This document shows positions 1,977-8,647 of a DNA stretch of 64,000 nt, in pieces. Position 1 is the stretch's first letter, and each line of letters opens with the position of its first letter. The DNA comes from Candidatus Eiseniibacteriota bacterium (GTDB lineage Bacteria > Eisenbacteria > RBG-16-71-46): positions 896,001-960,000 of the forward strand of contig OY970178.1 of NCBI GenBank assembly GCA_963707915.1, written 5' to 3'. The position numbers and the translations under genes were made by a program. The notes under the pieces are model-generated. The model searched no databases. It was not told the DNA's origin and was given only the letters and a program-made list of their open reading frames with translations.

Positions 1977-2198
1977 CGCTCGTCTTCCCTCCTCTCGTCC
2001 CATCCCGGCGCAGCACGGCGCCCGGCCCGCCGCAGGCGGGCCCGACGGCGGCACCTGCCCTTCTGATGCAGGCGGCCGGTCCGGGGGCGCACCCGTTCAC
2101 GTCCCCGTGACACTCCGCCGGCGCCTGCGAGGCCTCGGTGGGTGGCGGTCGCCGCGGGCCGGCCCGGGCCCGCCCTGCGCCCCGCCGGGAACTGGGAT

Positions 2199-3651
2199 AT
2201 GCTGCGGCGCTGGGAGGTGCCCATCGTGCCCGTGGAACGGAAGGGTGACCGGCCGCCCCGACGCTGGCCGGCCCCGGAGTGGTTCGTATTCGGCTTCGTC
2301 GCTCTGATATTGGTCCGCCAGCTCCTGCTGCCCCCGATCGTGGGCCTGGCCGACAACGGTGACTTCGTGCGCGTGCTCGGCCCGCTCGGCCTGCAGCACG
2401 AGGCCACGCAGTGGAGCGAGCGATACTTCGGCTGGCTGGAGCAGACCTACGTGCCCGGGCCGAGCGAGCCGGCCCAGCTGCTGTCCTCGCAGCTGCTGCT
2501 GAGCGGGCTGGCGAAGGCGCTGGCCGGCCTGGGCTCGCGGGACGGGAGTCTGGATATCCGCACGCAGGGGGCGGTGCACCTGGTGCTCTACCTGCTGGGG
2601 ATCGCCCTGATCCTGCGGGCGGCCCGCACGTTCCGCCCTCCGGCGCGCGCGACGATCTGCGCAGCCATGCTGCTGGCGGCGACCGACGTGGCCTGGGTGG
2701 CGCCGCTGGCCTCGTTCTACGCCGAGGCCGCCACCCTGGTCTTCCTCGCCCTGCTCGTCGGCTTCGGCCTCCTGGCGCTGCGGGACGACCGCGCCCGTCC
2801 CTGGGCGCTGCCCGGATACTTCGTGGCGGCGGCCCTGTTCGTCGCGGCCAAGCCCCAGAACTACTTCCTCGCGCTGCCCCTGATGGCGCCGCCGGTCGCG
2901 CTCCTGCCACGCCTGTCCCGGGCGCGCGGGCGCGTCGCGGTGGTCGCGGCGGCCATCGCCATCGTGGCGCTCGGAGGGTTCCTGCAGACCCGGGTGCCGT
3001 GGGCGCAGCGCATCCGCAACCTGTGGAACGACGTCTTCTACACCATCCTCGCCGACTCGCCCGACCCGCGCGGCGACCTGGCGCAGTTCGGGCTGGGCCC
3101 GGAGCTGGCGCGCTTCGCCGGCGTGCCCGCCTTCGCGGACTCCATCCCGATCGAGGCGGTGACGGCGCCGCTTCGGGTTCGGTGACGTCCTGCGCTTCCA
3201 CGCGCGCCATCCCCTGCGCTTCCTGGGCACGGCCTCGGCGTGCGCGCGCAGCACTTTCGTCTGGCGCGACCCGCGCATGGGCAACTACACGCACGAGTCC
3301 GGCCGTCCGGCCGGCACGCTGGCGCGCGACTTCTCGGCCTGGAGCCGCGTCGAGGGCATGCTCCTGCCGCGCTCCCTGCTCTTCCTGGTCCTCTTCCTGG
3401 GCGGGGTGATGGCCGTGGCACTGGTCGAGGCGCAGCGCGCGGGCATGGCGACCGCGGCCGGGGGCACGGCGTGGATGTGCGCCGGGCTGGCGCTGGCGGC
3501 GGGCATGGAATTCGGCGTCTGCGTGGTCGGCGACGGCCTCTACGACATCGTCAAGCACCTGTACCTGTTCCAGCTGCTCTTCGACGCCTGCCTCTTCGCG
3601 GCGATCGCCTGGGCCATCGGCCTCGGCACCCGCGGGCTGTCGCGGCTCTAG
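2199..3651 (+). CDS. polytopic membrane glycosyltransferase, WsfD-like (GT-C type); frameshift near 3170
   Basis: PPIVGLADNGDFVRV motif, multiple TM helices, AKPQN. The reading continues in a second frame (FGFGDVLRFHARHP...MGNY...GDGLYDIVKHLYLF) to TAG 3651. Start codon uncertain. Confidence 0.7.
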
Positions 3652-3667: not shown

Positions 3668-5368
3668 CTACCACTCGCGGAAGATCCCCAGGCTCGCGCC
3701 GCGCACGATGTAGAAGGGCGTGTCGCCGTAGTCCACCTTGGCGTTCAGGCCCCACTGGGCGTCGAACCACTGCGAGTAGCCGAGGTTGAAACCGCTGCCG
3801 CGGTAGTCCACCAGCGCCTTCCCGGGGCCCACCAGCTGGTACGAGACGTTGCCCACGTCGTACCCGACGCCGATCGACAGGCGCCGCCAGACGACGTAGC
3901 TCAGCCCCACGCCACCCGAGGCCGACTGCGTGGCGCCCGGCTGCCCGATGTCGAGGCGCGCCTGCGCGCTGTAGACCCAGTGCGGCGTGTAGCGCACCAG
4001 GCCCAGGCCGACGCCGTCCGAGCGGTTCTCCCCCTTGCTCTGGATGCGCGTGTAGCCCAGCGTCGTGACCACGCCCGCCAGCGGGCGGCTCACCGCGGCG
4101 TCGAGCCGATAGCGGTTGGCGATGAAGTCGCCCGTGCCCGACGACGCGCCGAGCGTCACGCTGGTCTTGCCGAACCAGTGGGCGTACGAGAGCCCGCCGT
4201 CGAGGCTCTCGTCGCCGAAGCGGGCGGAGCGCCCGGCCTCGGCGCGCCAGGCCCAGCGCTCCGCGCGGCCCAGGCCGGCGCGCAGGAACTCCCCGTCGGA
4301 GTCGCCGTAGCCCTCGGTGTAGTGGCCCCAGGCGCCGCCGATCTCGATCGAGCGCGTCAGCGCGGGCGCGCCCCACGCGCCGCCCGCGCCCGCCGCGAGC
4401 AGCACCAGCGCCGCCCCGACCGCGGCGCTCCGCGCGCCGTTTCCGTTCGCCCCGCGGCCGCCGTTGCCGCCGCCGTTGCCGTTGCCGTTGCCGTTCCCGT
4501 TCTGGCGGCCCGCCCAGCGGGCATCCTCGGCGCGCATCGGGTTCCGCCAGCTCACGCCCCAGGCGTAGAACGAGATGAACACCAGCACGTTCACCGTCAG
4601 GCCGAAGACGAAGAACATGAGCGGCATGAACAGCAGCGACAGGTGGTGGATGACGTAGGCGTGCACCACGTACTGCAGCGGCACCAGCACGAGCATGTGC
4701 AGCATCGTCAGCAGCGCGAGCAGGGCCTTGCGCCAGAGGCTGAAGTCGAGCACGAAGTAGGTGAAGCCGAGCATCACCGGGATGAGCGAGATCAGCATGA
4801 GGTCCGCGATGAGCATCCCGTGGACGTAGCCGCTGCCGTCGTAGGGGAAGGCCCACGGCCAGAGCCCGAAGAACAGCTGTGCGCCGGCCTGGAAGAACGC
4901 GAGCAGGCGCAGCACGTAGCGCAGCGGCAGCCACCGCAGCGGCACCGCGAACGAACCGAGCCCGATGACCAGCACGAACGCCAGGCCACCCCACCACAGC
5001 GCGCTGCCCGGCAGGCCGGAGCCGTAGTGCAGGAACGGCACGTCGAACCGGAGCAGGCCGTAGAAGTCGTAGGGCACCAGCGAGACGTGGCCCGGCAGGT
5101 CCACCGCGCCGCGCCAGAACTCGAGCATGCCGACCCACAGGCGCGCGAGCGGACCGAGCAGCAGCAGGTAGGCGGCGAACAGCAGCAGCGCGAGCAGGGA
5201 CGCCGGCACCAGCTTCGCCGGCTGGACCGGCGAGACGCGCAGCGCGCGGTGGGCCGGGATATCGCCGCCGCCCCAGCCGCGCTGGCGCAGCCGCAGCACC
5301 TCGCGGCGCGTCGCGGCGTCGGCCCATGGGAGTTGCGCGTCCAGCAGCAGGTGACGCGAGGTCGCCAT
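3668..5368 (-). CDS. in-frame fusion: ~6-TM inner-membrane protein + Asn-Gly linker + internal signal-like segment + YaiO-family outer-membrane beta-barrel
   Basis: Residues ~50-275 are hydrophobic helices, followed by an NGNGNGNGNG linker and ARSAAVGAALVLLAAGAGGAWGA. The rest is amphipathic beta-strands ending GASLGIFREW (terminal aromatic residue). Confidence 0.7.
   Translation of the reverse strand: MATSRHLLLDAQLPWADAATRREVLRLRQRGWGGGDIPAHRALRVSPVQPAKLVPASLLALLLFAAYLLLLGPLARLWVGMLEFWRGAVDLPGHVSLVPYDFYGLLRFDVPFLHYGSGLPGSALWWGGLAFVLVIGLGSFAVPLRWLPLRYVLRLLAFFQAGAQLFFGLWPWAFPYDGSGYVHGMLIADLMLISLIPVMLGFTYFVLDFSLWRKALLALLTMLHMLVLVPLQYVVHAYVIHHLSLLFMPLMFFVFGLTVNVLVFISFYAWGVSWRNPMRAEDARWAGRQNGNGNGNGNGGGNGGRGANGNGARSAAVGAALVLLAAGAGGAWGAPALTRSIEIGGAWGHYTEGYGDSDGEFLRAGLGRAERWAWRAEAGRSARFGDESLDGGLSYAHWFGKTSVTLGASSGTGDFIANRYRLDAAVSRPLAGVVTTLGYTRIQSKGENRSDGVGLGLVRYTPHWVYSAQARLDIGQPGATQSASGGVGLSYVVWRRLSIGVGYDVGNVSYQLVGPGKALVDYRGSGFNLGYSQWFDAQWGLNAKVDYGDTPFYIVRGASLGIFREW
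4440..4502 (-). repeat. AACGGC/AACGGG hexamer repeats encoding the Asn-Gly linker
   Basis: The plus strand reads gccgttgccgccgccgttgccgttgccgttgccgttcccgtt. Confidence 0.8.
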
Positions 5369-5369
5369 C

Positions 5370-6494
5370 TCAGTTCGTTCCTTTCGCCGGCGCCACCGCT
5401 GCGCCCCCGCGCGGCAGCACCACGCCGCCCCCGTGCGCCCAGACCGTGCCGTGCACCGCGCTGCCGGCCTCGATCTCGAGGCAGCGCGCGCTGAGCGTCG
5501 TCGGCCGCTGCTCCGAGCCCAGCCTCGCCCCCGCCTCGAGCCGCCCGTCGCGCTCGGCGACCACCGGCCCGTGGATCTCGCACCCGCGCCCCACCACCAG
5601 GTCCCGCCCCGAGACCACCGAGCCCTCCACCTGCACCCCCGCCCCGAGGACCAGGTCGCCGTGACTCTTCAAGCTGCCGACGATCCGCGTGCCCTCTCCG
5701 ACCTGCAACTCGCCCGTGACCACCAGGCTGGACGTCACCAGCCGGTGCGCGGGGATCTCCAGCCGCTGCCGCACCAGCCAGCGCCCCGCGGCGTCCTCGA
5801 CCAGGTTCGGCACGTCCTTCGCCAGGTACGGTTCCAGCCCCGGGCGCACCGGCCCGGGCTCCACCGGCTCGCCGAACGCGACCGTCGGCGCGTGGAGACG
5901 CTCGAAGCGGCAGCCCTGCTCCAGCGACATGGCCACGTCCGCGGACGCGCGCCCGTGCAGCGCGCAGGACTCCCGCGCCAGCAGGCGCGCCCGTGCGTGC
6001 AACCAGCGCAGCGACCAGCAACCCCGGCCGAGCCGCAGGTCGCCGCCGGCCAGGATGGCGCGGCACACGCTCTCCTCGCCGACCTCCACGCTGCCGGCCG
6101 CGTAGGTCTCGCGCGGGAAGATCGCCCGGGACGGCAGGCCGAGGTCGCCGCAGCCGAGCACCACCGCCTCGCACGTCGGCGGGCCGGCCGGCGCGGTCGT
6201 GAGCGCGGGCATCGCCCCGGAGGGCAGCGCGAGGTACGGCGTGCCGTCCTCGAGCGTGCCGTTCACCGCAGCGCCGCCCGCCCGGCACGCGGCCAGGGCC
6301 GCGCCCAGGTGGCTCTCCACCCACGCCTGGAACGCCGTCGCGAAGTGCCGGATGTCGACGTCGGACGTGCGCACCACGCGCAACGGCTTGATGTCCGTGC
6401 GGCGGCGCGCCTCGAGCAGCGACGGCAGCAGCGGCAGGGCGGCCCAGCCCAGGAAGAGCGCGAGACAGGCCACGACCGTCAGGATCAAGGCCAT
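5370..6494 (-). CDS. membrane-anchored beta-helix protein, bactofilin/polymer-forming-cytoskeletal-like (374 aa)
   Basis: ATG 6494 overlaps the GT2 3' end. N-terminal TM (MALILTVVACLALFLGWAALPLLP) followed by RRR. Two blocks of ~17-aa repeats (e.g. LVVTGELQVGEGTRIVGSLKSHGDLVLGAGVQVEGSVVSGRDLVVGRGCEIHGPVV). Confidence 0.72.
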   Translation of the reverse strand: MALILTVVACLALFLGWAALPLLPSLLEARRRTDIKPLRVVRTSDVDIRHFATAFQAWVESHLGAALAACRAGGAAVNGTLEDGTPYLALPSGAMPALTTAPAGPPTCEAVVLGCGDLGLPSRAIFPRETYAAGSVEVGEESVCRAILAGGDLRLGRGCWSLRWLHARARLLARESCALHGRASADVAMSLEQGCRFERLHAPTVAFGEPVEPGPVRPGLEPYLAKDVPNLVEDAAGRWLVRQRLEIPAHRLVTSSLVVTGELQVGEGTRIVGSLKSHGDLVLGAGVQVEGSVVSGRDLVVGRGCEIHGPVVAERDGRLEAGARLGSEQRPTTLSARCLEIEAGSAVHGTVWAHGGGVVLPRGGAAVAPAKGTN

Positions 6495-7942
6495 TCTTCC
6501 CCCCCGTCGCGGTAGGCGTGCGGGTGCTCGGTCTTCTGCCAGCGGACCCGCGCGCCCGGCCGGCGCGGCAGCAGGATCTGCAGCAGGGTCTCGTGCGAGA
6601 TGGCGAAGAGGCCGACCAGGAAGCCCAGCATGATGAGCGGCAGCAGGCGCACCCGCGCACGCGAGCCGTCCAGGTAGGCGGCCGCGCTGATCTCGAAGAA
6701 GATGGCGAAGTTGCCCAGCGCGCTGTACGAGGTGACCAGCAGGATGACGATCAGGCCGGGCCGCGTCTCGCCCAGGTACCACAGTGCCATCGCCAGCAGC
6801 CAGCCCAGCAGCAGGACCGGCGACATCAGGTAGACGTTGAGCAGCAGCCAGCCGTCGAGCTTCTCGCGGAAATGCGTCCGCGGCCCCGTCAGCAGGTGCG
6901 TGGCGTGCGCCCACAGCGCCTCGTTGTGCCCCCGCGCCCAGCGCCGGACCTGCCGCATGCGCTGCGGCCAGGTGGCCGGCACCTGCTCGTAGCACTCCGA
7001 GCGGTTCTGGTAGACCGTCTTCCAGCCGCCGCGCAGCAGCCGGAACGTGGCGTCGGTGTCTTCGGCCAGCGTGTCCACGCGCCAGCCGCCGACGCTCTCC
7101 AGCGCCCTGCAGCGCACGCCGCCCACCGTGCCGCCGTACTGCGGCACGAGCTTGAGGTTCATGCGCGCCTGCTGGTCCACCTGGTAGCCGCCGGTGCGCT
7201 CGAGGTCGAGCAGCCGCGTGAGCAGGTTCTGGCCCACGTTGTGCGGCACGACGCGGCCCATCACCGCCCCCACCTCGGGGTCGAAGAACGGCGCCACCAG
7301 CTGCTTGATCAGCCCGTGCCCCGGGATGTAGTCGGCGTCGAACACCAGCGCGATGTCGGTGGTGACCAGCTTCATCGCGTCCCGCAGCGCCGCGGCCTTG
7401 CCCGGCTCGCCCTGCTTGCGGTGATAGGGCGCCACGCGGCCCGGGTAGCGCGCCGCGAACCCGTCGATGATCTCGCCGGTGCGGTCCTTCGAGCGGTCGT
7501 CGACCGGCAGGATGTGCAGCCGCCCGGCCGGATAGTCGACCTCGAGCAGCGCCGTGAGGACCGCCCCGATCACCGGCTCCTCGTCGTGGGCCGGTACCAA
7601 CACCGTCACCTCGGGCCAGTCGGCGGTGTCGATGTCGAGATACGGGTGGCGCTGGGTGCCATGCAGGCGGTTGAGCGTGAACCAGTAGTGGCGGACCACG
7701 TAGACGCAGATCAGCAGCAGGATCGCGTACAGCGGGTAGAGCATCGCCAGCACGTACCACGGGCGGGGGAAACGCTGGCCGAACGGGACCGGCGCGTCGG
7801 CGGACACGGCGAAGGCCACCGCCACGACACCCCACGCCGCGAGGGCGACGCCGAGAGCGGTCAGCCAGGTCCGCAGGTGGAATCGGACGCGTTCGCGTGT
7901 CACCAGGCGGCCCCCCGGATGCACAGAATCCCGATGCTCCAC
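6485..7942 (-). CDS. processive GT2 glycosyltransferase (cellulose synthase/PgaC-IcaA-like)
   Basis: VDDRS, GKAAAL, FDAD, LAEDTD and QVRRW (D,D,D,QxxRW), flanking TM helices, C-terminal WQKTEH. No PilZ domain. Start is GTG 7942 or GTG 7903. Confidence 0.9.
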   Translation of the reverse strand: MEHRDSVHPGGRLVTRERVRFHLRTWLTALGVALAAWGVVAVAFAVSADAPVPFGQRFPRPWYVLAMLYPLYAILLLICVYVVRHYWFTLNRLHGTQRHPYLDIDTADWPEVTVLVPAHDEEPVIGAVLTALLEVDYPAGRLHILPVDDRSKDRTGEIIDGFAARYPGRVAPYHRKQGEPGKAAALRDAMKLVTTDIALVFDADYIPGHGLIKQLVAPFFDPEVGAVMGRVVPHNVGQNLLTRLLDLERTGGYQVDQQARMNLKLVPQYGGTVGGVRCRALESVGGWRVDTLAEDTDATFRLLRGGWKTVYQNRSECYEQVPATWPQRMRQVRRWARGHNEALWAHATHLLTGPRTHFREKLDGWLLLNVYLMSPVLLLGWLLAMALWYLGETRPGLIVILLVTSYSALGNFAIFFEISAAAYLDGSRARVRLLPLIMLGFLVGLFAISHETLLQILLPRRPGARVRWQKTEHPHAYRDGGEEWP

Positions 7943-7963: not shown

Positions 7964-8647
7964 TCAAAATGCGACATAGATCTTGATCCCGCTGAACTGG
8001 ACGACCCCGTTACGCACGGCGAAATGGGGCTCGCGGTAGGTGCCCGCCGGGTAGGTCTTCTCGGAGCGGTAGAGGCGGACTCCGTCCAGCCAGACCTGCA
8101 CGCGGCCGTCGCGCACCGCGAAGCGCAGCAGGTGCCAGTCCCCCTCGCTCACCGGCCGGGACGGCTTGATGACGCGCAGGACGTAGTCGACCCGGTCCAC
8201 CATGTGCCGCGCGCTGACCCGCCGCTGGCCGCCGAAGAGCACGGCACCGCTCTCGTGGTGCAGTTCGCGGCTGTCCCGCGTGAGCAGGTGGGCTTCGGCC
8301 ACGCGTCCCGCGGAGTCGGGCAGGAGGCGCACGCGGGTCTCGAGCAGGAAGTCCCCGCCGTGGTCGAACGGGGTGAAGTAGACCGCGAAGTCACCGGCGT
8401 CGTCGCGTCCCTCGAGCACGCCGTCCACGACCCGCCAGTCGCCCCAGCTCCACGCGCCGGCGTACGGCCCCTTGCGCACCTCCCACGCCATGGCCTGCCG
8501 CCACGTGGCGCCGTCGAGCACCAGGTCCGCGTTCGGCAGCGGGCGGGGCACGCTCTCGTAGAGACGCCGCAACGGCGCCCGATCCGTGCGCAACCCCAGG
8601 ATCGCAAGCACGAGCAGAATGGCGGCCACAATCAATGCTCTTCGCAT
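7964..8647 (-). CDS. exported ConA-like/DUF1080-type (3-keto-disaccharide hydrolase-like) beta-sandwich protein
   Basis: Signal/anchor MRRALIVAAILLVLAILG; motifs WRVVDGVL, GDFLLETRVR, WHLLRFAVRDGRVQVWLDG, VQFSGIKIY. Confidence 0.65.
   Translation of the reverse strand: MRRALIVAAILLVLAILGLRTDRAPLRRLYESVPRPLPNADLVLDGATWRQAMAWEVRKGPYAGAWSWGDWRVVDGVLEGRDDAGDFAVYFTPFDHGGDFLLETRVRLLPDSAGRVAEAHLLTRDSRELHHESGAVLFGGQRRVSARHMVDRVDYVLRVIKPSRPVSEGDWHLLRFAVRDGRVQVWLDGVRLYRSEKTYPAGTYREPHFAVRNGVVQFSGIKIYVAF

Follow-up and report, generated by a model that had tools for sequence, protein, structure and literature searches.

Can one bacterial gene supply both an inner-membrane protein and an outer-membrane barrel? 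The question is raised by a gene in a 64,000-nucleotide stretch of contig OY970178.1 (positions 896,001 to 960,000; assembly GCA_963707915.1) from a Candidatus Eiseniibacteriota bacterium. This whole stretch is called the window, and coordinates are given in it. The gene joins a domain of six transmembrane (TM) helices to a beta-barrel, with a segment resembling a signal peptide between the two. An initial annotation, made from the letters of the window, suggested that the internal signal exports the barrel and that signal peptidase I releases it, and named initiation at an internal ATG and an artefactual fusion as alternatives. Comparison with related loci led us to conclude that the gene most likely arose recently, when two neighbours that are normally translationally coupled became fused in frame. 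Below we describe the evidence for the fusion, its recurrence in the family, and the probable fate of its product.

Architecture of the fused gene

The features of the gene and its operon are collected in Table 1. The open reading frame (ORF) starts with ATG and runs for 566 amino acids without interruption. Hydropathy analysis found six hydrophobic segments (residues ~53–75, 124–143, 155–174, 185–207, 215–240, and 243–272), the last of which ends in FYAWGVSW. AlphaFold2, run on a 124-row alignment, gave a model with a mean predicted local distance difference test score (pLDDT) of 90.0, in which six long helices occupy residues 50–88, 122–141, 144–169, 178–203, 211–243, and 245–272. The domain modelled alone has the same fold (pLDDT 91.3, predicted TM-score (pTM) 0.85). 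Its tail contains a predicted amphipathic helix (residues 277–291) and an Asn-Gly run (residues 290–303), the DNA of which was recognized by Tandem Repeats Finder (TRF) as (GCCGTT)x7 at 4460–4501. The pLDDT drops below 50 in linker residues 294–314, and the model continues after the linker with a helix (residues 310–325) and 14 strands. The signal-like segment, at residues ~313–334 (ARSAAVGAALVLLAAGAGGAWGA), has the order basic, hydrophobic, and small-residue, and consists of R313, a hydrophobic core (residues 315–326), and a small-residue zone (residues 326–334). The initial annotation had described an uninterrupted 566-residue frame, about six TM helices ending at FYAWGVSW, an Asn-Gly repeat linker, an internal segment like a signal peptide, and a beta-barrel with a terminal Trp, and the translation, hydropathy, repeat, profile, and model analyses agree with it on all of these elements.

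The barrel half was assigned with family profiles. Residues 340–566 match TIGR04390, the YaiO family, with 84.3 bits (cut-off 32) over positions 2–230 of the 230 in the model, and PF19413 with 35.2 bits (cut-off 23.9). It is the single YaiO copy of the source genome (87.2 bits in a scan of that genome), and a predicted Sec signal peptide, here internal (residues 313–334), stands immediately before it. No significant pairwise similarity to E. coli YaiO was detected by BLASTP (E = 3), so the assignment rests on the profile match. The model has 14 strands at residues 337–565, with block pLDDT values mostly between 92 and 98. Foldseek retrieved porins and autotransporter barrels, the best by target TM-score (0.62–0.69) being the 14-strand OmpG; a search of the barrel sequence against PDB chains gave no match at E ≤ 1. 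The protein ends in FREW, an aromatic end serving as a signal for the beta-barrel assembly machinery (BAM), and this ending is common to the window protein, P0002, P0003, L002, and L004 (P numbers denote proteins and L numbers loci). We conclude that residues 335–566 are a predicted outer-membrane barrel of the 14-strand YaiO type.

Table 1. Features of the fused gene and its operon, in window coordinates
Feature	Position	Strand	Length, match, or basis
Whole fused ORF (P0001)	3668..5368	minus	566 aa + stop
Arg-rich N-terminus, predicted cytoplasmic, residues 1–49, with near-invariant H40-R41	5222..5368	minus	
Predicted six-TM inner-membrane domain, residues 50–272, with periplasmic beta-hairpin 94–114	4553..5221	minus	
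Tail, predicted cytoplasmic, and Asn-Gly linker, residues 273–312	4433..4552	minus	
Candidate internal start ATG, M278	4535..4537	minus	
Retained barrel signal peptide (predicted), residues 313–334	4367..4432	minus	Alignment to N-terminal signal peptides of split orthologues
Predicted YaiO-family 14-strand outer-membrane barrel, residues 335–566, ending FREW	3671..4366	minus	
First operon gene: N-terminal hydrophobic segment and 3-keto-disaccharide-hydrolase/DUF1080-like domain	7964..8647	minus	227 aa
Processive GT2 synthase	6485..7942	minus	485 aa; PF13641 107.5 bits; partial PgaC/NodC/CelA-type matches
Beta-helix protein with one N-terminal TM helix	5370..6509	minus	379 aa; Bactofilin 21.6 bits, below cut-off 27.9

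The internal signal segment and the merging of two frames

The locus was compared with 11 related loci. The two halves lie in different frames in eight of the 12 and are fused in frame in three (the window, L002, and L004). The remaining locus, L007, is scrambled by frameshifts and was left out of the fused and split counts and of the trees; at positions 646–2370 of this long-read metagenome-assembled genome, several frameshifts interrupt each half of the homologous pair. The barrel ORF of each of the eight split loci begins at a separate ATG or GTG, which overlaps the stop of the upstream gene by 4 nt (L001, L003, L009, L010, and L011), 11 nt (L008), or 29 nt (L005 and L006). The barrels of these loci start with a normal N-terminal signal peptide of the basic-hydrophobic-AxA type. 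Because these signal peptides are homologous to the internal segment of the window protein, we conclude from the alignment that the segment is the former N-terminal signal peptide of the barrel. The homology to genuine signal peptides also supports the earlier suggestion that the segment acts as an export signal.

The junction itself indicates how the fusion arose. The stretch between shared anchor codons measures 141 nt in the window and 215 nt in L001, the nearest split relative, so that the window is 74 nt shorter. In the DNA alignment of the two, a single gap accounts for 71 of these 74 nt; it spans the tail of the upstream gene, the overlap of stop and start, and the basic beginning of the signal peptide. 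Since 74 leaves a remainder of 2 when divided by 3, the loss merged the two frames.

An assembly artefact, in which two real genes appear continuous through a consensus error, is a highly improbable explanation. The initial annotation had raised it in view of indels, and there are grounds for it. The adjoining gene on the plus strand (2142–3651), which encodes a PMT_2-like membrane protein, falls into two parts (2142..3185 and 3277..3651) that are read in different frames, with a break at ~3165–3185. L002, L004, and L005 carry this gene in a single frame, pointing to single-base indels in the assembly; the break probably reflects either an assembly indel of one base or a frameshift of recent origin. 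In addition, the junction includes a hexanucleotide repeat, and none of the public sequencing runs contains reads of the source organism (the best share was 0.12 of 66 sampled words). Contigs obtained from four runs at 80% likeness are fragments from relatives; one 382-nt X1 contig bridges 4391..4473, with 93 letters versus 81. However, the gap to the nearest split relative is 74 nt rather than 1–2 nt, and a one-base error is excluded as its cause because the loss removes the stop, the start, and the ribosome site. The junction contains no homopolymer of at least 5 nt. When the three frames were examined, a one-base shift anywhere in the linker led to a stop only after the hydrophobic core and left the barrel without a start. 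Moreover, similar in-frame fusions are found in independent assemblies.

Even with a truly continuous frame, the barrel could still be translated independently, by initiation inside the gene at ATG 4537 or at a non-canonical codon, the long form being a by-product. We consider this unlikely. An in-frame ATG (M278) does lie 35 codons upstream of R313, and the ancestral arrangement depended on a start within the upstream gene. The fused locus L004 also carries cores resembling a Shine-Dalgarno (SD) sequence at two of its six in-frame starts, both GTG, which makes an internal start conceivable for some of the fused forms. None of the three in-frame start codons near the window junction, M278 included, is preceded by an SD core, although a weak one had been assigned to ATG 4537 initially; such a core precedes five of the eight true barrel starts in the split loci. 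The fused locus L002 has none either (0/4), nor has L017 (0/4), a more distant fused locus described below. In L017 all four starts lie in or after the hydrophobic core, with no in-frame ATG, GTG, or TTG ahead of it. Met at position 278 is present in just four of 10 aligned relatives, split and fused alike, and the fused protein P0003 has no Met in the corresponding tail. Initiation at M278 would furthermore create an atypical signal peptide of ~57 residues.

The fusion is recurrent and old in one lineage

Fused and separate forms were also found among database proteins. A word-indexed protein search returned 10 proteins including the query, of which two are fused (512 and 573 aa) and seven have 311–325 aa; the latter stop soon after the Asn-Gly run, at the conserved tail. 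An exhaustive search with residues 1–300 gave 337 cluster representatives at E ≤ 1e-3. The six-TM domain is complete in 136 of 158 matching proteins examined, and 117 of these end within 40 residues past the domain, five have tails of 41–150 residues, and 14 have tails of more than 150 residues. Domains were scanned in 20 proteins, comprising 17 long proteins and three typical ones, and a full-length YaiO domain (67–87 bits) follows the six-TM domain in eight of them. The junctions between the two domains in these eight proteins, the window protein (P0001), and P0002 are alike: all 10 contain the motif FYxWxxSW and a linker that is basic, along with a hydrophobic core and, before the barrel, a small-residue site. 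Overall, the halves are fused in frame in nine database proteins and in four loci, the window included. The fourth fused locus, L017, belongs to a genome of another genus (G021; 42% identity) and has no Asn-Gly linker.

The evolution of the two states was examined with two trees. The first tree, of 21 N-domains, requires five state changes, at least three of which are forced by well-supported branches. The second tree has 146 rows (the 136 complete proteins, the window, and nine locus translations; excluded were L007, with its frameshifts; L001 and L002, which nearly duplicate P0006 and P0002, respectively; and 22 incomplete proteins). Its 12 fused rows also need five changes, all forced by well-supported branches, and it includes an all-fused clade of six with an SH-aLRT (Shimodaira–Hasegawa-like approximate likelihood ratio test) value of 98; the longest path within this clade is 1.73 substitutions per site. 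From the five changes and the deep all-fused clade, we conclude that the fusion is recurrent, that it is old and maintained in one lineage, and that it is a singleton in the window.

The loci of the window's genus include L001 and L004 (Candidatus Eisenbacteria), and the more distant loci are from Gemmatimonadota. Within the genus, the genes are fused in G000 (the source genome), G003, and G007 and split in G005 and G006; no operon match was found in G001, G002, and G004, which are 96%, 54%, and 93% complete, respectively. The initial annotation had asked whether the halves are separate genes elsewhere and fused in close relatives. They are separate in the eight split loci, and fusions do occur in relatives (L002, L004, and L017); the nearest relatives are all split.

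Another reading is that the deletion was recent and damaging: export or cleavage of the chimera would fail, the strain would have lost its barrel, and its operon would be in decay. In favour of this, all close relatives of the singleton fusion are split, little of the basic n-region of the signal peptide remains, and the operon is accessory, being present in four of the seven other genomes of the genus. On the other side, the deletion left the frame unbroken and spared the hydrophobic core, the small-residue zone, and each of the 230 barrel codons; the remaining operon genes are intact as well, and the same architecture has been kept across deep divergence in the family and is thus workable. 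We consider it unlikely that the fusion is a degenerate form.

Predicted topology and partner of the six-TM domain

The direction in which the internal signal peptide would insert depends on the side of the membrane on which the linker lies. The family-mean number of Lys and Arg residues is 10.2 in residues 1–52, 2.1 in loop 144–154, 1.7 in loop 208–214, and 5.3 in the tail, and it is 0.3 and 0.2 in loops 175–184 and 241–242, respectively. The 48-residue loop 76–123 has means of 2.7 for Lys and Arg and 3.7 for Asp and Glu. This charge bias places the N-terminus, loops 144–154 and 208–214, and the tail in the cytoplasm. The helix count is even, six by both hydropathy and AlphaFold2, as the initial annotation had supposed when it returned the linker to the cytoplasm; an odd count, which would put the linker in the periplasm, was not found. 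Other fusions of the family point in the same direction. The six-TM domain continues C-terminally into a family 2 glycosyltransferase (GT2) synthase in P0066 and into a zinc ribbon in P0147, and a beta-helix protein is fused to its N-terminus in P0019; these three fusions fit a cytoplasmic location of both domain ends. The charge distribution, the AlphaFold model, and the fusions thus agree on a cytoplasmic linker, and with the linker inside, the former signal peptide would be oriented to export the downstream part.

Further fusions of the domain were noticed in the same set. Zinc-ribbon segments occur in P0147 and P0074, P0092 carries the domain in a 1496-aa DUF11 protein with a sorting tail of the type IX secretion system (T9SS), and in P0157 the domain is joined to another domain led by a signal peptide.

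The six-TM domain belongs to a family that has no name. Residues 1–280 matched no family in Pfam or NCBIfam, and neither did three typical stand-alone members. A fold search against 48,161 solved chains found no relative; the best hit, a designed helical protein, had a Z score of 9.7, within the range common for helical bundles. H40 and R41 are conserved in at least 90% of 105 family sequences. We predicted a complex between residues 1–295 and the GT2 synthase of the operon, which scored 0.80, as compared with 0.00 for the best of three controls; the mark for such predictions is reached by 116 of 157 solved complexes and two of 215 mismatched pairs. The contact agreement between runs was at least 77%, and the partner pLDDT was at least 79. 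The predicted interface consists of H40-R41, P249, and Y268–W270 of the six-TM domain and residues 385–446 of the synthase, and residues 40–48 of the fused protein fall within it. These predictions suggest that the six-TM domain probably binds the membrane part of the synthase.

Kinship with exosortases, a lead from a protein atlas (score 0.78), was examined and rejected: PF09721 does not match the gene, and hhalign of the N-domain profile with an exosortase alignment gave a probability of 0.2%. A true exosortase is encoded elsewhere in the genome (G000:C1:336850-337614; PF09721, 198.6 bits), so the genome has a second, unrelated sorting system linked to polysaccharides.

Proposed processing of the fused product

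We consider it likely that the fused product is a precursor cut by signal peptidase I, with export of the barrel, cleavage, and a 1:1 output of the two subunits. The deletion would have taken the upstream stop and the barrel start with its ribosome site and would have left little of the basic stretch of the signal peptide; the ribosome would make one chain of 566 aa. The linker would remain in the cytoplasm after helix six. The old signal peptide would then insert as a seventh helix running from inside to outside, and Sec export of the barrel would begin. Signal peptidase I may cut in the small-residue zone, at about residues 328–335, and the released barrel would pass to BAM and into the outer membrane. 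The inner-membrane product would retain the signal peptide as an extra C-terminal helix, giving seven helices in total. The same genome encodes signal peptidase I (151 bits) and BamA (475 bits). We also considered a protein that spans the envelope uncut. This was rejected because just ~5–10 residues separate the hydrophobic segment from the first strand, a spacer presumably too short for the barrel to arrive in the outer membrane without cleavage.

Several observations weigh against processing of a continuous precursor. The signal peptide of the window protein has just two Arg residues (R305 and R313) before the hydrophobic core, and its small-residue zone offers several possible cleavage sites. 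The nearest relatives of the window protein (82–88% identity) are all split, and selection has therefore had little time to test this singleton fusion. To these must be added the SD-like cores in L004, the indels in the PMT_2-like gene, the lack of source reads in public runs, and the insignificant pairwise match to E. coli YaiO, all described above.

Operon and genomic setting

The fused gene is the last of a tight four-gene operon on the minus strand (Table 1), and its ATG lies 1 nt after the stop of the beta-helix gene. The order of beta-helix protein, six-TM domain, and YaiO barrel is kept in all 12 loci, and the GT2 gene is upstream in 10 of them; the contigs of L002 and L007 end before it. 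The GT2 has the DxD (D202 and D204), (T)ED (E294-D295), and QxxRW (Q331, R334, and W335) motifs that mark a processive synthase, and these residues are invariant in nine sequences. The match of the first gene product to PF06439 (25.0 bits) is slightly under the cut-off of 26.8, and a DUF1080-like gene is present in five of the eight loci in which the GT2 match extends to its N-terminal region. In the four operon proteins, a Pfam scan at E ≤ 0.1 found no tetratricopeptide repeat (TPR) scaffold and no PilZ, MshEN, or other receptor domain for cyclic di-GMP (c-di-GMP). Such scaffolds and receptor domains are common, but not universal, in these systems. Judged from its gene content, the operon is of the synthase-dependent exopolysaccharide type, as a variant.

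The beta-helix protein also has matches below the cut-off to the left-handed beta-helix parts of LpxD-type acyltransferases. The gene preceding yaiO in E. coli is annotated as a putative acyltransferase, which may be a parallel. Beyond the convergent PMT_2-like gene, and hence outside the operon, a 372-aa ORF on the minus strand (936–2054) has a GGDEF-type diguanylate cyclase sequence at its end, read as GGEEF in the translation; it may be connected with regulation of the synthase by c-di-GMP.

Comparison with known systems

In the annotation of E. coli K-12, the cluster yaiS-yaiP-yaiX-yaiO comprises a putative glucosyltransferase (yaiP) and a putative acyltransferase (yaiX), with yaiO 1 nt after yaiX. 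As in the window, the barrel gene is the last of a same-strand cluster that includes a glycosyltransferase. E. coli YaiO differs in being a stand-alone precursor of 257 aa, and no six-TM protein is listed in the cluster.

The PgaC synthase is bound by a small membrane protein, PgaD; for the window GT2, the six-TM domain is predicted to be such a partner. PgaCD-PgaA, NfrB-NfrA-YbcH, and BcsA/B-BcsC resemble the window operon in combining a processive GT2 with an outer-membrane barrel in overlapping or abutting genes; for example, the overlap of nfrB and nfrA is 14 nt (PMC8669469). The window differs from the Pga, Nfr, and Bcs systems in that its barrel is of the 14-strand YaiO type rather than a large TPR-porin, and in that the partner belongs to an unnamed family and is fused to the barrel. 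An inner-membrane domain and an outer-membrane barrel domain in a single gene are also described by Sexton et al. 2023 (PMC10160955) for the pABC permease of Thermotoga maritima, which has LptF/G, LptA, and LptD domains. That protein is presented as envelope-spanning, with an LptA-like bridge, rather than as cleaved, and differs from the window protein in this respect. Among the papers listed by literature searches on YaiO and the outer membrane and on internal signal peptides, none describes the present fusion.

A parallel for the proposed processing is the cytochrome b/c1 precursor FbcH of Bradyrhizobium japonicum, reportedly described by Thony-Meyer, James, and Hennecke in 1991, in which one gene is said to give two proteins. 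FbcH is said to consist of a polytopic inner-membrane protein, an internal signal sequence, and a second protein that faces the periplasm. The putative window precursor would work like it, with one ORF, a polytopic part, a signal, and an exported part. The window shares with this architecture a polytopic part predicted to end in the cytoplasm, a signal peptide, and a predicted exported part, and its halves are separate in relatives. The proteins themselves are unrelated. A further difference is that both products of FbcH are reported to remain in the inner membrane, where they belong to a single complex; the window barrel would have to leave for BAM.

Implications

The present analysis defines a widespread family of six-helix proteins that had no name and that, because gene order, gene fusions, and complex prediction agree, is a likely membrane partner of the GT2 polysaccharide synthase. 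We lean, with some reserve, towards a more general view, in which diderm bacteria have repeatedly arrived at a selectable design that links the inner-membrane part of a machine to its outer-membrane barrel via the signal peptide that the barrel retains. Signal peptidase I would serve here as a polyprotein processor, the signal peptide left behind would stay permanently as a seventh helix of the inner-membrane partner, and the barrel would be released beside the synthase, which would fix the stoichiometry and possibly the place of assembly. The window would represent a young example of this design and the all-fused clade an old one.

If the product is cut as proposed, the precedent of the cytochrome b/c1 precursor would be extended to proteins bound for two different membranes, and this extension, if true, would be a family-wide design that has evolved repeatedly. 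The fused proteins would also offer a natural system for asking how Sec and signal peptidase I treat a signal peptide that follows six TM helices, and whether co-synthesis helps to place an outer-membrane pore opposite an inner-membrane synthase.

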